Assembly (NCBI RefSeq): GCF_055900595.2
Contig: NZ_CM148325.1
DNA length: 64,000 nucleotides
Strand: one strand, 5' to 3'
Below, piece after piece: positions 4,779 to 15,911 of the stretch (position 1 is its first letter; each line of letters starts with the position of its first letter). The notes beneath the pieces are model-generated. The model ran no database searches and was not told the origin of the DNA. It saw only the letters and a program-made list of their open reading frames with translations. Position numbers and translations under genes: made by a program.

Positions 4779-5086
4779 GTTTTTTTCTTCCTGTACCTGT
4801 CTGTGTTGTTCAGGCTCTGCGGCCTTTAGTCAGTCTATGATACGACGAATCTGTATCGGGACTCATCGATATTAGGTAACAATACGCGGGATGAATACTA
4901 AGATTTAGATCTAATGTTAATTTTATGTTTAAAGTGAGTGTCATATCACGGTGATAACGCGAAACAGCTCACAAAAATACACGCTTACGTGGTCTTTGCA
5001 ACACAAAATAGCGCCATTTGGCAAACTGAAGGGTTTATTGCTGAATGCCTGCTCCCCTCTGGCTCGAGGGGAACAGAATGCGCTGC

Positions 5087-5707
5087 TTAGAGGATTTCCA
5101 GCAGTTCGACTTCAAACACCAGGGTGCTGAACGGAGGGATGGACGCGCCTGCGCCACGCTCGCCATATGCCAGTTCCTGCGGGATAGTCAGTTCCCATTT
5201 AGAACCTACCGGCATCAGAGTCAGTGCTTCAATCCAGCCAGGGATCACGCCGTTAACCGGGAATTCAGCTGGCTCGCCGCGAGCGACGGAGCTGTCAAAC
5301 ACGGTGCCGTCGATCAGTTTTCCGGTGTAATGAACACGAACGCGGTCGGTACGTGCCGGAATTGCGCCTGCACCCTGGTTGATCACGCGGAATTGCAGGC
5401 CAGATTCGGTGCTATTCACACCTTCTTTTTTGGCGTTTTCTTCCAGGTATTTCACACCTTCAGCAGCCATCGCCTGGAAACGCTGACGACGAACGGCATC
5501 GGCGCGTTCGTGGATTTCACGCAGCGCGCGGTGCACCACATCAACCGGAACAGCCGGATGTTTGCCTTCCAGCGCATCGGCAATGCCTGCAACCAGTGCT
5601 TCTGGCAGCAGCCCTTCCAGGCCTGATTCACTCAGTTGTTGCCCTACCTGCAAACCAATGCCGTAGCTTGCTTGCGCTTCGATGGTGTCAAAAGTTGGGG
5701 TGGTCAT
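5087..5707 (-). CDS. fklB: FKBP-type peptidyl-prolyl cis-trans isomerase FklB
   Basis: Start chosen at internal ATG (5705-5707) giving 206 aa [12 protein letters not shown]...; C-terminal FKBP domain; the track ORF extends 53 codons further upstream and is rejected. Confidence 0.9.
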
Positions 5708-5924
5708 CGTATTTCCTTTCTTAGGGTATAAAGTAGCGGGCAGCATATCAGCCACACTTCTTTGGGTAAAACTTTGTCGCGGGAATGATGACAAATCCCG
5801 GGGAAAAAGAAACAATAGCAATATCCCGTATGAATATAATAAAGGCGGGTTTACCACGGACATCATAGCGTTAGCTTATTCATAGGCTATGATTGAGGAA
5901 CAAGACGCGGAGCAGGAGGAAACC

Positions 5925-6563
5925 ATGCCCGGGCGCTTTGAACTAAAACCAACCCTGGAGAAAGTCTGGCACGCGCCGGACAATTTTCGCTTCATGGACC
6001 CGCTACCGCCGATGCATCGTCGGGGGATCATTATTGCCGCTATTGTATTGGTGGTCGGATTTCTACTCCCGTCTGATGATACGCCAAACGCGCCGGTGGT
6101 GACGCGTGAAGCACAGTTAGATATTCAGTCGCAATCACAACCGCCGACAGAAGAACAGCTGCGGGCGCAATTAGTCACACCACAAAATGATCCTGATCAG
6201 GTGGCTCCGGTCGCTCCAGAACCGATACAGGAAGGCCAACCGGAAGAGCAGCCGCAAACCTCGCAAGTGCAACCTTTCCAGCCAGATAGCGGAATTGACA
6301 ATCAATGGCGCTCTTATCGTGTCGAACCCGGTAAAACAATGGCGCAGCTGTTCCGCGACCACGGACTGCCCGCTACCGATGTCTATGCAATGGCGCAGGT
6401 AGAAGGCGCAGATAAGCCACTGAGTAATTTGCAAAATGGGCAGATGGTGAAAATCCGCCAGAACGCCAGCGGCGTGGTGACGGGCTTAACCATTGATACG
6501 GGAAATAATCAACAGGTCCTGTTTACCCGCCAGCCGGATGGCAGTTTTATTCGCGCGCGGTAG
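5925..6563 (+). CDS. ytfB: Cell-division-associated OapA-domain protein YtfB
   Basis: ATG at 5925 with AGGAGGA RBS (5913-5919); 212 aa; one TM helix then Pro/Gln-rich linker; in-frame upstream ATG at 5889 also possible. Confidence 0.85.
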
Positions 6564-7194
6564 ATGAAGGGTCAACCAGAAGCCAGCTAAGGATCGTCTC
6601 TTTGATGACCTTACGCCTGGCTTCCAGTGCCTGCGGTGAAACCATACTGATGTGATAAACCAGGCCAAGCGTATGTTGGTTGATCAAATAATATCCTCCA
6701 AGAGCAGCAATATTAATATTCACCTGCAACGGGTCGATATCTGGCTTAAAAATATTGCGCCGTTTGCCTTCAGCTAATAATGACTCCATTAACTGTAAGT
6801 GTGCGTGGTTAATTTCTAAAAGGCGCTGTGATTTTGCATAATGCACCCCTTTACTCTGGTTTTCACTATGCACAATTTTTAAAAACCAGGGGTTAGCAAT
6901 GTAATAATCCCAGGTGAAATCGATAATTTTCTCAATGGCTTTTTGTGGCGGAAGACCTGAGAAATCAAGGGATTTTTCTTTTTGCCGAATATCATTCCAG
7001 GTATATTCCAGCACTTCGATAAATAAATTTTCTTTATTACCAAAGTGATGATAAACCGTCTGTTTACTGCACTCCGCGGCCTTGACGATATTATCGACTC
7101 TGGCCCCTTCGTAACCATATTCGGCAAATTCATTAACCGCACATAACAACAGCTTTTCCTTCAGGCTTTGTACGTTGCTGGTATCAAGATACAT
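6547..7194 (-). CDS. TetR/AcrR-family transcriptional regulator, divergent from the downstream operon (possibly the full-length counterpart of the K-12 ytfA fragment)
   Basis: N-terminal HTH region [48 protein letters not shown] typical of TetR family; start set at ATG 7192-7194 (215 aa); upstream in-frame start at 7254 possible; low GC. Confidence 0.8.
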
Positions 7195-7316
7195 TCCGCT
7201 TCCCCACGTCTTCTTCGTGATGACTATCTTAACCCGATTTGTTAGAAGCTCCACTAAAATGGCTAAAAACTCGCAATTTCATCGGGTTATCAAATGCTCT
7301 GTGATCATTATCGCAT

Positions 7317-7338
7317 ATCAACCAACTAGATGGTTGAT
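7317..7338. promoter_or_regulatory. Candidate TetR operator: perfect 8-6-8 palindrome ATCAACCA-actaga-TGGTTGAT between the divergent regulator and SDR genes
   Basis: Palindrome read directly from sequence, about 70 nt upstream of the SDR start codon and 120 nt upstream of the TetR gene start. Confidence 0.5.
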
Positions 7339-7405
7339 CTTTCTTGCCACACATTGCAAGCTAATCGTCACTTAAGGAAATAATATTCAAAAAGAGGGTT
7401 ATTGT

Positions 7406-8197
7406 ATGAAGTCAACACGTCCTGTTGCTGTCATCACTGGAGCCGCACGTGGTATTGGAAAGGGCTGTGCACTGGAACTTGCGCGTGGCGGATTTAATCT
7501 GCTGATTAATGATCGTCCGGATGCCGACAGCGTAGAAAAATTACATGCCACACAACAAGAATGTCTGGCGGAAGGCGTGGAAGTGATTTGCTTCCCTGCT
7601 GATGTTGGCGATCTCTCCCTTCATGAAGAGATGCTCGACGCGGCGCAAAACCAGTGGGGACGTCTGGACTGTCTACTCAACAACGCAGGCATTTCAGTGA
7701 AAAAACGCGGTGACCTCCTCGACCTCGAACCAGACAGCTTCGACCAAAACATTGCCATTAACACCCGTGCGCCGTTCTTCCTTGCTCAGGCATTCAGTAA
7801 GCGATTACTGGCACAGCCGAAACCGGAAGCAGAACTGCCGCACCGCTCGATTATTTTTGTCAGTTCCATAAACGCCATCATGCTGGCGATGAATCGCGGC
7901 GAATATACCATTGCCAAAACTGCCGTCTCCGCCGCAGCTCGCCTGTTTGCCGCTCGCCTTTGCAATGAACAAATTGGCGTTTATGAAGTGCGCCCTGGCC
8001 TAATCAAAACCGATATGACCATTCCGGCAACGGCTTATTACGACGAACTGATTGCTAAGGGGTTAGTGCCGTGGGGACGTTGGGGTTATCCGGCTGATAT
8101 TGCCTCAACGGTCCGCGCGATGGCGGAAGGCAAACTGATTTACACCTGTGGTCAGGCGGTCGCCATCGACGGCGGCTTAAGTATGCCGCGCTTCTGA
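7406..8197 (+). CDS. Short-chain dehydrogenase/reductase (SDR) family oxidoreductase
   Basis: 263 aa; TGAARGIG cofactor-binding motif, NNAG, and catalytic Ser...YxxxK (YTIAK); RBS GAGGG. Confidence 0.85.
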   Translation: MKSTRPVAVITGAARGIGKGCALELARGGFNLLINDRPDADSVEKLHATQQECLAEGVEVICFPADVGDLSLHEEMLDAAQNQWGRLDCLLNNAGISVKKRGDLLDLEPDSFDQNIAINTRAPFFLAQAFSKRLLAQPKPEAELPHRSIIFVSSINAIMLAMNRGEYTIAKTAVSAAARLFAARLCNEQIGVYEVRPGLIKTDMTIPATAYYDELIAKGLVPWGRWGYPADIASTVRAMAEGKLIYTCGQAVAIDGGLSMPRF

Positions 8198-8206
8198 GGC
8201 TGAATC

Positions 8207-9049
8207 ATGAGAGATCTGTTACAACGCCCGGATTTATTCAGTATCAATACTGCGACACTGGGCTATAAAACACCGCTACCTGCCATTATTGATGCCTGCG
8301 CCGCACGCGGTATTGGCGCGATTGCCCCCTGGCGCAGGGAGTTACAGGGTGAAGATCTCCAACAAATCGCCCGCCAGCTTGCTGCCAGTAACATGAGCGT
8401 TTCCGGTTTGTGCCGTAGCACCTATTACACCGCGCCGACGCTGACGGAACGCAAACTGGCGATTGATGATAACCGCCGGGCGCTGGACGACGCCGCTGTA
8501 CTAAACGCCGCCTGTTATATGCAGGTGGTTGGCGGTCTGCCAATGGGAACAAAAGATCTGTACGAAGCGCGGGAACAAGTGAAACAAGGGATTCGCCAGT
8601 TGCTGCCACATTCGAAAGATGTCGGCGTGCCAATTGCGCTGGAGCCGCTGCACCCGATGACAGCTGCCGATCGCTCTTGCCTGTGCACGTTACGTCAGGC
8701 GCTGGACTGGTGTGATGAACTCGATCCCGATGGGGAGTTTGGCCTCGGCGTGGCGGTAGATGTCTACCACGTTTGGTGGGATCCGGATCTCGCCAGTCAG
8801 ATCCTGCGTGCCGGAAAACGCATCCTCGCGTTTCATGTTTCCGACTGGCTGGTGCCAACCACCGATTTAGTCAATGACCGGGGAATGCCGGGAGATGGCG
8901 TAATCAATATTCCGTCTATTCGTCGCCAGGTAGAAAATGCCGGATTTAACGGTGCTGTGGAACTGGAAATTTTCTCACCGTACTGGTGGCAGCAAGATAT
9001 TAACAGCACGTTGGATATTAGCGTCGATCGCATCGCGCATTATTGCTAA
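8207..9049 (+). CDS. Sugar phosphate isomerase/epimerase-like (xylose isomerase-like TIM barrel) enzyme
   Basis: 280 aa; family assignment from overall sequence character (judged by eye, less certain than neighbours); 9-nt gap after the SDR gene. Confidence 0.6.
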   Translation: MRDLLQRPDLFSINTATLGYKTPLPAIIDACAARGIGAIAPWRRELQGEDLQQIARQLAASNMSVSGLCRSTYYTAPTLTERKLAIDDNRRALDDAAVLNAACYMQVVGGLPMGTKDLYEAREQVKQGIRQLLPHSKDVGVPIALEPLHPMTAADRSCLCTLRQALDWCDELDPDGEFGLGVAVDVYHVWWDPDLASQILRAGKRILAFHVSDWLVPTTDLVNDRGMPGDGVINIPSIRRQVENAGFNGAVELEIFSPYWWQQDINSTLDISVDRIAHYC

Positions 9050-9052
9050 GGA

Positions 9053-9835
9053 ATGATCATGAGTGACCAACCCGTTCTGTTCAGCAGAGCGGCGGCTTCC
9101 TGCCGCCTGACATTGAACCGTGAAGATAAATGTCATGCTATTAATGAAGAAATGATCGAATCTCTCGACCATTATTTAAATGAAATTGAAAACGACACCA
9201 CATTACGATTAGTCGAATTAACGGCAACCGGCGATAAATTCTTTTGTGCGGGCGGCGATATTAAATCGTGGTCGGCCTATTCGCCATTAGATATGGGCAG
9301 AAAATGGATTAAACGCGGCAATGACGTTTTTAATCGCCTGCGCAACTTACCCCAATTAACGGTTGCGAATCTCAACGGTCATACCATCGGCGGCGGTATT
9401 GAACTTGCCTTGTGCTGCGATATTCGTATTGCCCGCCCCAGTGCGAAATTCTCTAATCCGGAAGTAATGCTCGGCATGGTGCCTGGCTGGATGGGCATTG
9501 AACGCGTGCTTAATCAGGTCGGTCCGGTGGTCGGTCGCCAGATGCTGATGCTGGGTAAACGCCTGACGGCGCAGGAAGCTCAGGCGGCGAATTTAATTGA
9601 TGAAGTGGTAGAAAAAGAACAGGTGGAAAGCTGGATGGCGAATCAGTTAGCGCAGCTGGAAAAATGCGGTCCGGTGGCGCTCGCACATATCAAGCAACTG
9701 ATTCTGGCTCTAGAAAATAAACATGCTGATTACCCGCACCAGTTACTGGCTGGATTAATGTCCGCCACTCAGGATTGCCAGCAGGCGACGCGCGCATTTG
9801 CCGAAAAAAGTAGCGTGAGCTTCCAAAATCAATAA
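9053..9835 (+). CDS. Enoyl-CoA hydratase/isomerase (crotonase) family protein
   Basis: 260 aa; FCAGGDIKSW and GHTIGGGIELALCCDIRIA crotonase signature segments; 3-nt gap after the upstream gene. Confidence 0.85.
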   Translation: MIMSDQPVLFSRAAASCRLTLNREDKCHAINEEMIESLDHYLNEIENDTTLRLVELTATGDKFFCAGGDIKSWSAYSPLDMGRKWIKRGNDVFNRLRNLPQLTVANLNGHTIGGGIELALCCDIRIARPSAKFSNPEVMLGMVPGWMGIERVLNQVGPVVGRQMLMLGKRLTAQEAQAANLIDEVVEKEQVESWMANQLAQLEKCGPVALAHIKQLILALENKHADYPHQLLAGLMSATQDCQQATRAFAEKSSVSFQNQ

Positions 9836-9844
9836 GGAAATTGT

Positions 9845-11386
9845 ATGCGTAAGATAACAACCGCCGAGACACTGGCGGCGCAAATTCAGGACGGCGCAAC
9901 CATTGCCATTAGCGGTAATGGCGGCGGCATGGTGGAAGCGGACCATATTCTGGCTGCTATTGAAGCGCGTTTCCTGCAAACCGGACACCCGCGCGATCTG
10001 ACATTAATCCACTCACTGGGCATTGGCGATCGCGACTGCAAAGGCACTAACCGCTTCGCTCATGCAGAGATGCTCAAACGCATCATTGCCGGACATTTTA
10101 CCTGGTCGCCCAAGATGCAGGATCTGGTGAAAAACAATGCTATTGAAGCCTACTGCTTCCCTGGTGGCGTAATTCAGGCACTGCTGCGGGAGATCGGTGC
10201 CGGACGTCCAGGGCTTTTTACCCACGTTGGGCTGGGATCGTTTGTTGATCCGCGCAACGGCGGCGGTAAGTCGAACGCTAGCAGCACTGAGGATCTGGTA
10301 GAACTGATTGAAATCGACGGTGAAACCAAACTTCGTTATCGCCCCTTCAAAGTGGACTACGCGATTTTGCGTGGCACTTATGCCGATCCGCGTGGCAACG
10401 TCAGCCTCGAAGAAGAGGCGATTGATATGGATAGCTATTCCATGGCGCTGGCAGCACACAACAGCGGCGGCAAAGTGTTCGTACAGGTGCGCGATGTGCT
10501 GGAAGCTGGTGCCATTGAACCACGCCGGGTCAAATTACCGGGCATTCTGGTTGATGGCATCGTTGAACACCGCGAACAACCGCAAACCTATCTTGGCGGT
10601 TACGACCTGACCATCAGCGGTCAGCATCGCCGTCTAAGTTCTAACGACGCAATTGAACTGGTTAGTCATCCGGTGCGCCGCCTGATTGCCCGTCGGGCAG
10701 CACGCGAACTGGTGGCTGGCGCTTCAACCAACTTTGGCTTTGGCATTCCCGGCGGCATTCCTGGGGTTGCACTGCGCGAAGGCGTGCCTTATCAAAGTTT
10801 ATGGCTGAGCGTAGAACAGGGTGTACATAACGGCATGATGCTGGATGATGCTCTGTTCGGCTGCGCCCGCAACGCCGATGCCATTATTCCATCACTCGAT
10901 CAATTCGAATTCTACAGTGGCGGAGGGATCGATATCACCTTCCTCGGCATGGGAGAGATGGATCAGTACGGTAACGTCAACGTCTCCCATCTCAATGGCA
11001 ATCTCATTGGCCCCGGCGGATTTCTCGAAATTGCGCAAAACGCCCGTAAAGTGGTGTTCTGCGGCACGTTCGACGCCAAAGGTAGCACGATTGATGTAAC
11101 ACCAGATGGCTTGCATATCGCCCAGTCAGGTCAAATCCCTAAACTGGTTACCCAGGTGGAAAAAATCACTTTTAGCGCCGCCTACGCACAGCAAAGCGGT
11201 CAGGAAGTGTTGTATATCACTGAACGTGCAGTATTCCAGTTAACAGCAGAAGGCGTTGAATTAATTGAAATCGCACCAGGTGTGGAGATTGAGCGCGACA
11301 TTCTGCCGCATATGGCCTTCCGTCCAATTATCAATCAGCCACGCCTGATGGAAAGTAGCCTGTTTACGCCGATGGAGGATGCATGA
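9845..11386 (+). CDS. Family-I CoA-transferase (fused alpha/beta, YdiF / propionate-CoA-transferase-like)
   Basis: 513 aa; N-terminus TAETLAAQIQDGATIAISGNGGGM and size match acyl-CoA:acetate/3-ketoacid CoA-transferases; RBS AAGGA. Confidence 0.75.
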   Translation: MRKITTAETLAAQIQDGATIAISGNGGGMVEADHILAAIEARFLQTGHPRDLTLIHSLGIGDRDCKGTNRFAHAEMLKRIIAGHFTWSPKMQDLVKNNAIEAYCFPGGVIQALLREIGAGRPGLFTHVGLGSFVDPRNGGGKSNASSTEDLVELIEIDGETKLRYRPFKVDYAILRGTYADPRGNVSLEEEAIDMDSYSMALAAHNSGGKVFVQVRDVLEAGAIEPRRVKLPGILVDGIVEHREQPQTYLGGYDLTISGQHRRLSSNDAIELVSHPVRRLIARRAARELVAGASTNFGFGIPGGIPGVALREGVPYQSLWLSVEQGVHNGMMLDDALFGCARNADAIIPSLDQFEFYSGGGIDITFLGMGEMDQYGNVNVSHLNGNLIGPGGFLEIAQNARKVVFCGTFDAKGSTIDVTPDGLHIAQSGQIPKLVTQVEKITFSAAYAQQSGQEVLYITERAVFQLTAEGVELIEIAPGVEIERDILPHMAFRPIINQPRLMESSLFTPMEDA

Positions 11387-13455
11387 GTCAGCTTGATGAC
11401 ACCCTCCTTGATGCGCTGACGCACGTCACTTTCCCGAAGGGTTTTGCACAGGCAGAACCCGCATGGGTTGTCACGGTAGACGGTGTTGATTACCCACTCT
11501 GGCAAACAGATGCCCTGGTAGTCGGCAGTGGTGCAGCCGGGCTGCGTGCAGCTGTGGAACTTAAGCGCCGCCAGCAAAATGTGCTGATCGCCACCGCCGG
11601 GTTATATATGGGGACATCGGCATGTTCTGGTTCCGATAAACAGACGCTGTTTACCGCCGCTACCGCGGGCAACGGCGATAACTTCGCCAAACTGGCAGAG
11701 GCACTGGCGAGCGGCGGCGCAATGGATCACGATACCGCTTATGTTGAAGCGGTTGGTTCCCTGCACACTCTTGGCGGGTTGCAATATCTTGGTCTGGAAT
11801 TACCGGAAGATCGCTATGGCGCAATTCTTCGTTATCAAACCGACCATGACGAAGCCGGGCGAGCAACCTCGTGTGGGCCGCGGACCTCAAGGTTAATGGT
11901 GAAAGTACTGCTGGAAGAAGTACAGCGTCTCGCCATTCCAGTGTTGACCAGTGCAACAGTAATTAAACTGCTGCATCAGCGTGACGAAAACGGTGAAGAC
12001 CGCGTGGCGGGGGCAATCCTCGCGACCGGTCATCGTGCCCATAACCCATGGGGGCTGGCAATTGTGACTGCGCCCAATGTGGTACTGGCAACAGGAGGGC
12101 CTGGCGAGCTTTATCGTGACAGTGTGTACCCACACAAATGTTTCGGCTCGCTGGGGCTGGCGCTGGAAGAAGGTCTGACGTTAACGAATCTGACCGAAAG
12201 CCAGTTTGGTATAGGCACGCCGCGCAGCACCTTTCCGTGGAATTTATCCGGGACTTATGTACAGGTGATCCCATACATCTATTCGGTGGATGCCGGGGGC
12301 AACGAGTATAACTTCCTCGCAGATTACTATCGCACCACCCAGGAGCTGGCTTCAAACATCTTCCGTAAAGGCTATCAGTGGCCGTTTCACGCCACACGAG
12401 TGATGGATTTTGGCTCCAGCTTGTTAGATATGGCAGTAGCGCAAGAGCAGCAATCAGGACGTCAGGTATTTATGGATTTCAATCGCAATCCTGAACCTGT
12501 GCCGGGTGACCTGCCGTTCTCATTAGATCGACTGGACGACGACGTTCGCGCGTATCTGGAAAATAACGACGCTCTGGCACCATCGCCCATCGAACGACTG
12601 CAACGAATGAATCCGCTGTCTATCTCGCTGTATAAGATGCACGGTTACGATCTCACCACGCAGCCATTGCAGTTTGCCATGAATAATCAGCATATGAATG
12701 GCGGCATTGAAGTGGATATCTGGGGGCAAACCTCCCTGTCCGGCTGTTTCGCCGTGGGGGAAGTTGCTGGCACACACGGCGTCACTCGCCCTGGTGGTGC
12801 GGCATTGAATGCCGGGCAGGTTTTTGCTGTTCGTCTGGCACGTTTTATTGGTTGCACGCAAAAACGTAATATTGATGGAGATATAGCACAGCTGGTAGCT
12901 CCGGCACTGGCTTCTATAAGAGAGATCATTACTCAGGCGCACGATAACGGGACCGGGATGCCGTTGTCGGTTGTGAGGGAAAAAATTCAGGCACGAATGT
13001 CTGACCATGCGGGATTTATTTGTCATGCCGATAAAGTCCGACGCGCCACTCGTGATGCCCTGCTATTGAACGAATTTGTGCAACGGCATGGATTGGCAAT
13101 CAAACATGTGGGTGAAGTTGCCGAGCTGTTTATGTGGCGGCATATGGCGCTGACTTCTGCCGCGGTATTAACACAATTAACGCATTATATTGATGCTGGT
13201 GGTGGTAGCCGTGGGGCGCGTATGGTTATTGATCCACAAGGCAAATGCCTACCACAAACTCGTCGCGGCGCAAAAGAAGAATGGCGTTTTCGCTCTGAAC
13301 TCGCTGAAGACAAAAATCACAAATTAACAATTCAATATTCGCAAGGTTCTTTTATTACCGAAGTAAAGTCTTTACGTATGCAACCGTGTATTAACGGTAT
13401 TTACTTTGAAAAAAACTGGCCAGACTTTTTAAAGGGAGACATTTACACACAGTAA
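11383..13455 (+). CDS. FAD-dependent oxidoreductase of the fumarate reductase/succinate dehydrogenase flavoprotein superfamily (soluble, stand-alone)
   Basis: 690 aa; ALVVGSGAAGLRAAVEL dinucleotide-binding motif after a ~45-aa N-terminal extension; C-terminal GEVAGTHGVTRPGGAALNAGQVFA resembles the FrdA/SdhA HGANRLGxNSL segment; start overlaps the CoA-transferase stop (ATGA). Confidence 0.8.
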   Translation: MSQLDDTLLDALTHVTFPKGFAQAEPAWVVTVDGVDYPLWQTDALVVGSGAAGLRAAVELKRRQQNVLIATAGLYMGTSACSGSDKQTLFTAATAGNGDNFAKLAEALASGGAMDHDTAYVEAVGSLHTLGGLQYLGLELPEDRYGAILRYQTDHDEAGRATSCGPRTSRLMVKVLLEEVQRLAIPVLTSATVIKLLHQRDENGEDRVAGAILATGHRAHNPWGLAIVTAPNVVLATGGPGELYRDSVYPHKCFGSLGLALEEGLTLTNLTESQFGIGTPRSTFPWNLSGTYVQVIPYIYSVDAGGNEYNFLADYYRTTQELASNIFRKGYQWPFHATRVMDFGSSLLDMAVAQEQQSGRQVFMDFNRNPEPVPGDLPFSLDRLDDDVRAYLENNDALAPSPIERLQRMNPLSISLYKMHGYDLTTQPLQFAMNNQHMNGGIEVDIWGQTSLSGCFAVGEVAGTHGVTRPGGAALNAGQVFAVRLARFIGCTQKRNIDGDIAQLVAPALASIREIITQAHDNGTGMPLSVVREKIQARMSDHAGFICHADKVRRATRDALLLNEFVQRHGLAIKHVGEVAELFMWRHMALTSAAVLTQLTHYIDAGGGSRGARMVIDPQGKCLPQTRRGAKEEWRFRSELAEDKNHKLTIQYSQGSFITEVKSLRMQPCINGIYFEKNWPDFLKGDIYTQ

Positions 13456-13547
13456 TTTTCAATATTTACTCTGTACCTGATTTTTATTGCCTATTACATG
13501 GAAATACCAACAACCAGGGTTTATTAATATAATTAAAAGGTTTAAAA

Positions 13548-14825
13548 ATGAATAAAATAAAGAATTATCGATGGCATATGATTGCCCTCGTATGCTTTAT
13601 CACTGTAATCAATTATCTGGACAGAACGGCGTTAGGTATTGCGGCTCCAACGATTATGGAGACAACCGGAATAACCAAAGAACAATATTCATGGATTGTC
13701 AGTGCATTCCAGTTGGCCTATACATTGGGGCAACCGGTAATGGGCTTCTTTATTGATACCGTGGGTCTGAAGTTAAGTTTTGCGATATGTGCCGCAATCT
13801 GGGGCCTGGCGACAATGGGGCATGCCTTGACAGGAACATGGTCAGGTCTGGCATTTATGCGCGCCCTGATGGGTTTCAGCGAAGCATCGGCAATTCCTGC
13901 GGGTGTAAAAACCGCATCAACATGGTTCCCGGCAAAAGAGCGTGGCGTGGCGACAGGTGTTTTCAATATGGGCACCTCACTCGGCGCGATGCTTGCTCCA
14001 CCGTTGATTGCCTGGTGCATTATGTTTCATAGCTGGCAATTTGCGTTTATTGTCTCAGGTAGCCTTGCTTTACTCGCGGCTTTATTTTGGTTCTTTTGTT
14101 ATAAAGATCCAAAAGATGCTAAACGCCTTTCTGATGAAGAGCGCCACTATATTGAGTCTGGGCAAGAACAGCATCTTAAAACAGATAAGAAAGAAAAAAC
14201 GTCAATCAAGCATATCCTCAGCCAACGTAATTTCTGGGGGATTGGCATCGCGCGTTTTCTCGCTGACCCGGCATGGGGAACCATTAACTTCTGGGTACCG
14301 ATTTTCTTCGTCGAAACGCTGCATTTTAGCCTGAAAGAAATTGCCATGTTCGTCTGGCTGCCTTTCCTGCTGGGCGATCTCGGCTGTTTAGCCAGTGGTT
14401 TTGTCGCGAAGTTCTTCCACGATCGCGGCGTGAGTTTAATTAACTCACGAAGAATTACCTTCACTATTGCAGCCGTCATTATGATGACGATTGGTCTGGT
14501 GAGTATTGTCGAAAATCCCTACATCGCCGTATTACTGATTAGCATTGGCGCATTCTCGCATCAATGTCTTTCTACTGTTGCAGCAACTCTGGGCGGTGAC
14601 CTATTCAAAAAAGACGAAGTAGCTACCGCTGTGGGTATGGCAGGAGCCTGTGCATGGAGCGGTCAGTTGATTTTCAACCTGTTTATCGGGGCATTCGTTC
14701 ACATTATTGGCTTCGCGCCGTTCTTTATTGCCCTGGCTTTCTTTGACATTATTGGTGCTATTGCGTTGTGGACGCTTATCAAAGTTAAAGATGAAGAACC
14801 ACAAGTACAGTTAGCTACCCACTAA
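13548..14825 (+). CDS. MFS transporter, anion:cation symporter (ACS) subfamily-like (ExuT/DgoT/GudP-type)
   Basis: 425 aa, about 12 TM segments; N-terminal RWHMIALVCFITVINYLDRTALGIAAP is characteristic of ACS-family organic-anion permeases. Confidence 0.8.
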   Translation: MNKIKNYRWHMIALVCFITVINYLDRTALGIAAPTIMETTGITKEQYSWIVSAFQLAYTLGQPVMGFFIDTVGLKLSFAICAAIWGLATMGHALTGTWSGLAFMRALMGFSEASAIPAGVKTASTWFPAKERGVATGVFNMGTSLGAMLAPPLIAWCIMFHSWQFAFIVSGSLALLAALFWFFCYKDPKDAKRLSDEERHYIESGQEQHLKTDKKEKTSIKHILSQRNFWGIGIARFLADPAWGTINFWVPIFFVETLHFSLKEIAMFVWLPFLLGDLGCLASGFVAKFFHDRGVSLINSRRITFTIAAVIMMTIGLVSIVENPYIAVLLISIGAFSHQCLSTVAATLGGDLFKKDEVATAVGMAGACAWSGQLIFNLFIGAFVHIIGFAPFFIALAFFDIIGAIALWTLIKVKDEEPQVQLATH

Positions 14826-14836
14826 TTATTTTAAAT

Positions 14837-14868
14837 AAAAACGCTATAATTGAGGTTATGGCGTTTTT
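14837..14868 (+). terminator. Intrinsic terminator after the MFS transporter gene
   Basis: Hairpin aaaacgctataa/ttatggcgtttt (one mismatch) with short loop, followed by a T-run, 12 nt past the stop codon. Confidence 0.55.
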
Positions 14869-15094
14869 AAAGAAGCTTGAGTTATCGAACCTAGCTTACC
14901 AACGCGTTGTCAGTCATCTCCCCCCTCCCTGGTGCATCGTTATATCCGTGATGAGCGATTTTTGATATTAATATCTTTCACCATCCGCTATTTTCACCAC
15001 TTCAGAAAACAAACTTATTTTTATTAATATCAATTCTTTTTCTTTGAACATTCAACTGCGATATTTGTAAAAATATTAAACAGGCAACAATAAA

Positions 15095-15889
15095 ATGACA
15101 TTACCAACAACTATTTATTCATTCCCCGCATATTTACCTCGTTTTTCGTCCACCGACAAACCAGCAAAACTAAAATTTCATCAATACGCACGCGCTACAT
15201 TACTGTCAAATCGTGGAAGAGATCATAATTGCGATGGCAGACGTACTGTTGAGATCCACAAACTAGATCTCTCAGACTGGCAAGCATTCAATAAGCTAGC
15301 GACGAGGTGTAATACTTACGATGGAATAACAATGAATGGTGATAATTCTTTTGGATGGAACCATGAAGCTACATTAGATAATATTCACGCCCAGAAATAC
15401 AATAAAGCTTACGCGGGTGCGCGGTTAACCGCAGAACTGAAATATTTATTGCAAGATGTCGAATCCTTCGAACCCAACAGTAAATACACAATACACGAAG
15501 TGGTTTTGGGACCTGGTTATGGTACTCCAGACTATACCGGCCAAACGATAGGATACGTTGTAACCCTTCCTGCCCAAATGCCTAATTGCTGGTCATCTGA
15601 ACTACCAACAATCGATCTTTATATCGACCAACTTCGCACTGTTACAGGCGTTTCTAATGCCCTCGGATTCATCATTGCTGCATTGCTAAACGCGTATTCT
15701 GATTTACCCCATGATTTGAAAATTGGTCTACGTTCCTTATCAAATTCAGCCGCAATCTACTCGGGTTTAGGTTTCGAGCGAGTGCCGCAGGACCGAGACA
15801 TAAGGAGTGATCGTATGCATCTAACGCCAGCAAACCATCCTGACTTATGGACACAAGAGAATGGTGAATGGATCTACTTGCGAAATTAA
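15095..15889 (+). CDS. yjfZ: Uncharacterised protein YjfZ
   Basis: 264-aa ORF, AT-rich, preceded by an AT-rich 270-bp intergenic region; size and position next to rplI match K-12 yjfZ. Confidence 0.75.
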   Translation: MTLPTTIYSFPAYLPRFSSTDKPAKLKFHQYARATLLSNRGRDHNCDGRRTVEIHKLDLSDWQAFNKLATRCNTYDGITMNGDNSFGWNHEATLDNIHAQKYNKAYAGARLTAELKYLLQDVESFEPNSKYTIHEVVLGPGYGTPDYTGQTIGYVVTLPAQMPNCWSSELPTIDLYIDQLRTVTGVSNALGFIIAALLNAYSDLPHDLKIGLRSLSNSAAIYSGLGFERVPQDRDIRSDRMHLTPANHPDLWTQENGEWIYLRN

Positions 15890-15911
15890 TGCCTGACGAA
15901 AAATAGAAAGC

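Follow-up and report, generated by a model that had tools for sequence, protein, structure and literature searches.

The closest described relatives of the protein studied here belong to the anion:cation symporter (ACS) family of the major facilitator superfamily (MFS). They include ExuT, the hexuronate:H+ symporter of Escherichia coli K-12 (b3093) and of Dickeya/Erwinia; DgoT, the D-galactonate:H+ symporter (PDB 6E9N/6E9O); the glucarate/galactarate permeases GudP and GarP; and LgoT and RhmT. In DgoT, R47 makes a salt bridge to the carboxylate of the substrate, to which Y44 and Y79 hydrogen-bond, D46 and E133 are the sites of protonation that active transport needs, and Q164, Q264, S370 and N393 bind hydroxyl groups (PMC6532931). 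Functional analogues of unrelated architecture (a periplasmic solute-binding protein, or SBP, plus DctQ/DctM) are the hexuronate transporters of the tripartite ATP-independent periplasmic (TRAP) type, such as STM3169-3171 of Salmonella; TRAP systems are acid importers (PMC7660916). Here we describe an MFS permease gene at positions 13548-14825 of a 64,000-nt stretch of DNA (the window; NCBI RefSeq assembly GCF_055900595.2, contig NZ_CM148325.1). It closes a run of six genes on one strand (7406-14825). Our analysis places the predicted protein on the ExuT branch of the ACS family, and we consider it probable that it is an ExuT-type H+ symporter importing a hexuronate-like acid for the coenzyme A (CoA)-dependent operon that precedes it.

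The reading frame is intact, with an ATG start, 425 codons and no internal stops, and the N-terminal peptide quoted in an initial annotation of this DNA, RWHMIALVCFITVINYLDRTALGIAAP, corresponds to residues 8-34 of its translation. The genome that best matches window positions 6400-15000, that of E. coli EC42405 (98.0%), carries the same 1278-nt coding sequence with the same start, which RefSeq labels 'MFS transporter'. The product matched the Pfam MFS_1 profile (PF07690) with an E-value of 3.4e-62 and 210.8 bits (cutoff 33.4), and among the candidates that were scored 2213 homologs reached E <= 1e-20. A chance open reading frame is therefore excluded, and this is a genuine MFS gene. Superfamily membership is also borne out by the alignment to DgoT over residues 9-410 and, from its coverage of DgoT's 12 helices, the protein is predicted to be a 12-helix secondary transporter.

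The initial annotation, made from the sequence alone, had called the protein an ACS anion:cation symporter and had named drug efflux as the kind of placement to look for against it. Our results uphold the call. The top NCBIfam subfamily model was TIGR00893 (2A0114, ACS/D-galactonate transporter family) at 315 bits, with OPA (168 bits), SLC17 (103 bits) and efflux models (at most 57 bits) ranked lower. The nearest solved structure was DgoT (6E9N; E 2e-40), followed by sialin and the VGLUTs. Together with the conserved residues and the ExuT clade described below, these results leave an efflux pump or any other non-ACS MFS protein with hardly any probability; the weak N-terminal matches to DHA1/DHA2 models that could be cited in its favor are usual for any MFS protein.

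Pairwise comparisons were made with a set from K-12 MG1655 (ExuT, GarP, GudP, DgoT, LgoT, YfaV/RhmT, UhpT, UhpC, GlpT and EmrD). The permease is 47.5% identical to ExuT, which is of similar length, compared with 21-25% for GarP, GudP, DgoT (25%), LgoT and RhmT and 18-21% for the OPA proteins UhpT, UhpC and GlpT. A neighbor-joining tree (500 bootstrap replicates) grouped the permease and eight close homologs in a clade (95%) that joined K-12 ExuT at 95.8%, with GarP, GudP and DgoT in a separate group. The permease lies topologically inside ACS, and support for the deep node of that family is low (29-32%). Of the phylogeny proposed in the initial annotation, the comparison with ExuT, DgoT, GudP and GarP was thus carried out and fell on the ExuT side; TtuB was not in the tree. 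Based on these comparisons, we assign the permease to the ExuT (hexuronate) branch of the ACS family (TC 2.A.1.14, SLC17-related). From its place in the ExuT clade, therefore, hexuronate appears to be the right member of the substrate list offered earlier, rather than galactonate or glucarate.

The functional residues of DgoT point in the same direction. All five of its carboxylate and proton residues are conserved, with Y44, D46, R47, Y79 and E133 aligning with Y23, D25, R26, Y58 and E112 of the permease, which thus carries the ACS signature of an Asp-Arg pair in transmembrane helix 1 (TM1), a Glu in TM4 and carboxylate-binding Tyr residues. GudP, GarP, LgoT and RhmT share the TM1 D-R and TM4 E of this signature. 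In contrast, the hydroxyl-binding positions are T143, R236, T343 and G366 (Q164T, Q264R, S370T and N393G relative to DgoT), and F137/W373 of DgoT are replaced by I/A. These changes argue that galactonate specificity is not to be expected. GarP, GudP and DgoT have Q/Q/A-or-S/N at these four positions, and the DgoT-like Q/Q/N pocket of GudP/GarP, LgoT and RhmT is lacking in the permease; both the residues and the separate clade therefore set it apart from the aldarate and aldonate permeases. K-12 ExuT, with S/R/G/G, is close to the permease, sharing its R and G where DgoT has Q264 and N393, as well as an N-terminal MxKIKxxRW motif. The T/R/T/G set recurs in homologs from Providencia, Edwardsiella, Yersinia, Pantoea, Gilliamella and Orbus, and the Providencia, Edwardsiella, Yersinia and Pantoea proteins have the same residue as the permease at each of the 11 DgoT sites that were mapped.

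The conserved Y23, D25, R26, Y58 and E112, together with the ExuT-like pocket set, suggest that the machinery for proton-coupled carboxylate uptake is intact and that the pocket is of the ExuT type. Since the carboxylate and proton residues are identical to those of DgoT, the same transport mechanism would be expected by analogy. The substrate carboxylate would be bound by R26 with Y23 and Y58, D25 and E112 would be reversibly protonated so that uptake is driven by the proton-motive force, and T143, R236, T343 and G366 would form the polar pocket of hexuronate transporters. Proton coupling is what we infer from this analogy. Canonical K-12 ExuT (locus L008, 5225-6523) differs from the permease in having Thr where DgoT has the essential proton-coupling Asp46; an Asp is kept at this position by the permease clade and by all the other ACS paralogs examined.

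Genomic context ties the closest homologs to hexuronate metabolism. A database search recovered homologs 79-85% identical to the permease in Providencia, Edwardsiella, Yersinia rohdei, Pantoea ananatis, Gilliamella and Orbus; by pairwise alignment, those of Gilliamella, Orbus, Providencia and Y. rohdei are 81-83% identical. Hexuronate contexts were seen for four of the six homologs examined, which hold the exuT position in uxaC/uxuAB/exuR clusters. In Gilliamella apis the order is uxuA - GntR / uxuB-like - uxaC - MFS, and this order is repeated in Orbus sasakiae, where a gene of the KDPG-aldolase family (eda) comes next. Providencia rettgeri has uxaC - uxuB - uxuA / MFS - GntR, and in Y. rohdei the MFS gene is followed by a GntR/FCD regulator, like exuT-exuR of K-12. 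At about 80% identity and with an identical pocket, unchanged specificity would be the simplest expectation. In the window itself neither uxaC, uxuA/B, uxaA/B nor an ExuR/UxuR gene accompanies the permease, which follows the CoA-type operon. It differs from ExuT, then, in being a second, accessory copy on a TetR-controlled operon outside the ExuR regulon.

Further evidence comes from an exchange of transporters at this locus. Of 5426 complete E. coli genomes, 1692 carry the permease gene, and 1481 E. coli genomes have a TRAP variant of the operon, which was found through a flavoprotein search of genome contigs. At one such E. coli locus (L014) there is no MFS gene, and the flavoprotein gene is followed by DctQ, DctM and DctP reading frames. 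In strain L65 the TRAP genes likewise lie at the ytfB...rplI locus; the same five enzyme genes come before them, and they start 20 nt past the flavoprotein gene. The window itself has no TRAP genes. The TRAP variant is 90.7% identical to the window at the nucleotide level over 5001-13446, where homology breaks, to resume at 15907; MFS plus yjfZ and the TRAP genes are therefore alternative cassettes. yjfZ travels with the MFS cassette; neither the TRAP variant nor the E. whittamii locus (L013) carries it.

The specificity of the alternative system was judged from its SBP (WP_000695886.1). Its best PDB matches were 4OVR, 4X8R, 4N8Y and 4N15/4LN5 (E 6e-72 to 5e-67), followed by 4N91, 4MIJ and 4MHF. 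Ligands of these structures were taken from two secondary papers: 4X8R holds glucuronate and 4N8Y galacturonate (PMC11668362), 4N91 is a glucuronate binder, 4MHF binds glucuronate/galacturonate and 4N15 served as the template for the glucuronate-specific STM3169 (PMC7660916). In the alignment, R146, R166 and N206 of the E. coli SBP match the ligand-binding R150, R170 and N210 of STM3169, with the same spacing. Two unrelated uptake systems thus occupy the same operon slot, and from their sequences both look hexuronate-specific. TRAP systems beside the flavoprotein gene in distant taxa were also considered; their SBPs are 27-33% identical to that of E. coli and were uninformative on specificity.

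Taken together, the pocket residues, the uxa/uxu-linked homologs and the hexuronate-type TRAP transporter in the same slot indicate that the substrate taken up is most likely a hexuronate or something close to it: D-glucuronate/D-galacturonate, or else a uronic or polyhydroxy-carboxylic acid that closely resembles them. The TRAP variant also lends independent support to the earlier suggestion that the operon imports a carboxylated substrate.

Several observations weigh against this reading. The 315 bits scored by the permease fall below the curated TIGR00893 cutoff of 395, which K-12 ExuT (427), GarP (457) and DgoT (494) pass. The uxu-linked Providencia ortholog (323) falls below it as well, and the shortfall is therefore a trait of the permease's own sub-clade (315-323 bits) rather than an anomaly of this gene. 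The Pantoea and Edwardsiella copies, two of the six homologs examined, stand without uronate-gene linkage. Canonical exuT is a core gene, present in 5420 of the 5426 E. coli genomes, which makes a second transporter of this kind partly redundant. Finally, the hexuronate routes that we know of run without CoA esters, and the enzyme set is a poor fit for glucuronate/galacturonate.

The last two points would be explained by a neofunctionalised ExuT paralog that has kept the ACS machinery and imports another carboxylic acid suited to CoA chemistry, such as a ring-shaped polyhydroxy acid (for example quinate or shikimate), a uronate that is unsaturated or deoxy (for example 4-deoxy-5-keto-uronate) or some other acid derived from a sugar: the CoA-transferase, crotonase and flavoprotein misfit the known hexuronate routes, and a distinct specificity would account for the second copy. 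The transporters found with related enzymes lean the same way. In Raoultella, a CoA-transferase - crotonase - flavoprotein trio comes with a ShiA-like (MHS-type) carboxylate symporter (LacI / CoAT - ECH - MFS - FAD), beside a gene for a GH88 unsaturated glucuronyl hydrolase. Related Enterobacterales have TetR / SDR - GFO - TIM - MFS - FAD clusters (SDR, short-chain dehydrogenase/reductase) without the CoA genes, and their MFS protein is a different one (22-23% identical where tblastn detected it, in Yersinia alsatica, Pseudescherichia and Mangrovibacter). Against a changed specificity, the permease is 79-85% identical to, and shares 11 of 11 mapped sites with, transporters linked to uxaC/uxuAB, and the alternative TRAP SBP also has the hexuronate-type R-R-N triad. 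We therefore regard a neofunctionalised paralog as rather unlikely and favor a hexuronate-like substrate.

A second question is whether the permease belongs to the operon. We find it most likely that it is co-transcribed as the last gene of a TetR-controlled SDR - TIM barrel - crotonase - CoA-transferase - flavoprotein operon, because it lies on the same strand, the gap before it is free of signals, a terminator follows it, the gene order is kept elsewhere and the whole unit is lost jointly in K-12. Promoter and terminator scans of the gap (13456-13547) gave no promoter-like site and no terminator, and folding gave no stable structure there (z +1.4). The hairpin terminator that the initial annotation had claimed at 14837-14868 was confirmed by folding of 14826-14885, which gave a 15-bp stem at 14836-14869 with arms AAAAACGCUAUAAUU and GGUUAUGGCGUUUUU, the 3' arm ending in UUUUU. 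Its free energy is -15.6 kcal/mol (z -3.5), and none of 200 shuffled sequences was as stable. A simple terminator scan did not include this hairpin among its calls. The U-run sits in the 3' arm and pairs with an A-run upstream; the scan probably missed it since its rules want a T-run after the stem, and here the U-run counts as stem. At a syntenic locus in Entomohabitans teleogrylli the operon is followed by an ExuT-like MFS gene in the same order (MFS and flavoprotein both 77% identical), and the same enzymes and MFS gene are found in this order in Escherichia sp. MOD1-EC7003 (MFS 77%, flavoprotein 86%). K-12 lacks the equivalent of window 6950-14926 (compared with locus L094), so that the enzymes, the permease and the terminator hairpin are missing together.

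Membership of the operon also has points against it. The enzyme genes are at most 9 nt apart or overlap, in contrast to the AT-rich 92-nt gap before the permease, and the GC content of the permease gene is 46%, compared with 49-55% for the enzyme genes. Their histories are discordant as well: the permease gene is at least 99% identical at the nucleotide level in 972 E. coli genomes, compared with only 3 for the whole 8.6-kb region (6400-15000), and its protein is 100% identical to the E. whittamii copy, compared with 92% for the flavoprotein. These features, and the fact that ISEcp1-blaCTX-M-15 can occupy the gap in clinical isolates, would suit an independently acquired second hexuronate transporter that sits between the operon and yjfZ with its own transcription and no functional tie to the enzymes. 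Such an arrangement is very unlikely in our view, given a gap without promoter-like site or terminator, a gene order kept in another genus (Entomohabitans), a slot that in other strains is filled by a TRAP system of matching predicted specificity only 20 nt past the flavoprotein gene, and the joint loss of enzymes and transporter in K-12. We read the permease instead as part of the operon, a 3' cassette that can be exchanged and may have been exchanged recently, by recombination or spread, rather than as an unrelated neighbor. Coordinates of the locus are collected in Table 1.

Table 1. Features of the permease locus; coordinates refer to the window unless another locus is named.
Feature	Coordinates	Strand	Remarks
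ytfB (flank)	5889-6563		
Divergent TetR-family regulator	6547-7254	-	PF00440 + PF17938; K-12 remnant is pseudogene ytfA
Perfect palindrome ATCAACCA-ACTAGA-TGGTTGAT, divergent promoter region	7317-7338	.	Candidate TetR operator
SDR (operon gene 1)	7406-8197	+	NF009386 420 bits; adh_short; YxxxK at residue 167
Xylose-isomerase-like TIM-barrel enzyme	8207-9049	+	PF01261 2.4e-37; PDB 3qc0/3ju2 ~9e-86
Crotonase-family enoyl-CoA hydratase/isomerase	9053-9835	+	PF00378 1.5e-45
Fused family-I CoA-transferase, 513 aa	9845-11386	+	PF01144; FadX-like 381 bits; PcaI/PcaJ halves
FAD-dependent oxidoreductase (flavoprotein), 690 aa, distant NadB/FrdA relative	11383-13455	+	PF00890 4e-26
AT-rich 92-nt gap, flavoprotein gene to MFS gene	13456-13547	+	Left edge of swapped transporter cassette
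ExuT-type MFS permease gene, ACS family, 425 aa	13548-14825	+	Predicted H+:uronate/sugar-acid symporter
Intrinsic-terminator-like hairpin with U-run, operon end	14836-14869	+	RNA folding
yjfZ/DUF2686 (flank)	15095-15889		GC 42%, GC3 (third codon positions) 36%
Alternative 3' cassette, MFS + yjfZ	13447-15906		
Alternative 3' cassette, TRAP dctQ-dctM-dctP	L014 12103-14946; L093 9521-12365		

In annotated E. coli the equivalent downstream region is yjfZ followed by rplI-rpsR-priB-rpsF. The palindrome between the TetR and SDR genes is a likely candidate for the TetR operator. Its half-site TCAACCA recurs, with other spacing, in the Providencia uxuA/exuT-like intergenic region (TCAACCAATTTGGTTAA). 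Control of the permease by ExuR/UxuR was considered and rejected: the gap upstream contains no ExuR-like palindrome of the TTGGT..ACCAA type, and a single ACCAAC half-site was not counted. An Rfam scan of 6400-15200 at E <= 0.1 gave no RNA families. The residues of the unit in K-12 are the ytfA pseudogene (TetR) and a 102-nt SDR fragment matching window 7495-7596 with 81% identity. An ISEcp1 - blaCTX-M-15 - wbuC unit is inserted at the equivalent of the gap in E. coli 2021CK-00607 (L098, 7558-10704). At least two isolates, clinical or from wastewater, have the ISEcp1 unit in the flavoprotein-MFS gap, where it parts the permease from the operon.

For the operon enzymes, structural comparison offered few clues to function. 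The nearest structures to the TIM barrel, 3qc0/3ju2, are those of the uncharacterised SMc04130. The best solved matches of the flavoprotein are to distant NadB/FrdA proteins (3e-09) and were uninformative. In the CoA-transferase the SENG motif was not found, and SVEQG at about residue 320 may be its equivalent. The 690-aa flavoprotein has 324 relatives in genome contigs, among them proteins 54-61% identical in Rhizobiales, Rhodobacterales, Planctomycetota, Lentisphaerota, Verrucomicrobiota and Accumulibacter. In 80 loci analysed, its most frequent neighbors were Gfo/Idh/MocA proteins (34), GMC oxidoreductases (25 and 22), SDRs (24), LacI regulators (22), TIM barrels (21), MalK-type ABC ATPases (18), crotonases (14), CoA-transferases (13), PfkB kinases (10) and aldehyde dehydrogenases (8). 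The family is widespread and uncharacterised, and its usual setting is carbohydrate gene clusters. With this in mind, the operon enzymes appear to act on a sugar-derived acid.

A full-text literature search found no paper on this operon. For its chemistry we propose the following reading. The permease would supply the pathway with its acid substrate, which the CoA-transferase would turn into a thioester. The crotonase, SDR, TIM barrel and flavoprotein would then contribute dehydration/hydration, keto-hydroxy interconversion, isomerisation and C=C oxidoreduction. It is conceivable, and we propose this only tentatively, that the operon represents an undescribed CoA-thioester route for a hexuronate or hexuronate-like acid, parallel to UxaC/UxuAB, with interchangeable MFS/TRAP uptake and built around the 690-aa flavoprotein family; on this view such a route would be carried by over half of the complete E. 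coli genomes.

In conclusion, the bare RefSeq label 'MFS transporter' can be made more specific. The permease is ordinary in kind, yet it offers the best way into an operon that lacks annotation and whose variants add up to 3173 of 5426 complete E. coli genomes (the sum of 1692 MFS and 1481 TRAP loci, possible overlap uncounted). The predicted specificity of its transporters narrows the search for the substrate of the five enzymes: in place of any carboxylate, it leaves a small set of candidates that can be tested, namely uronic acids and compounds derived from them. Such compounds are abundant in the gut, where they come from mucus, glucuronides, pectin and glycosaminoglycans.

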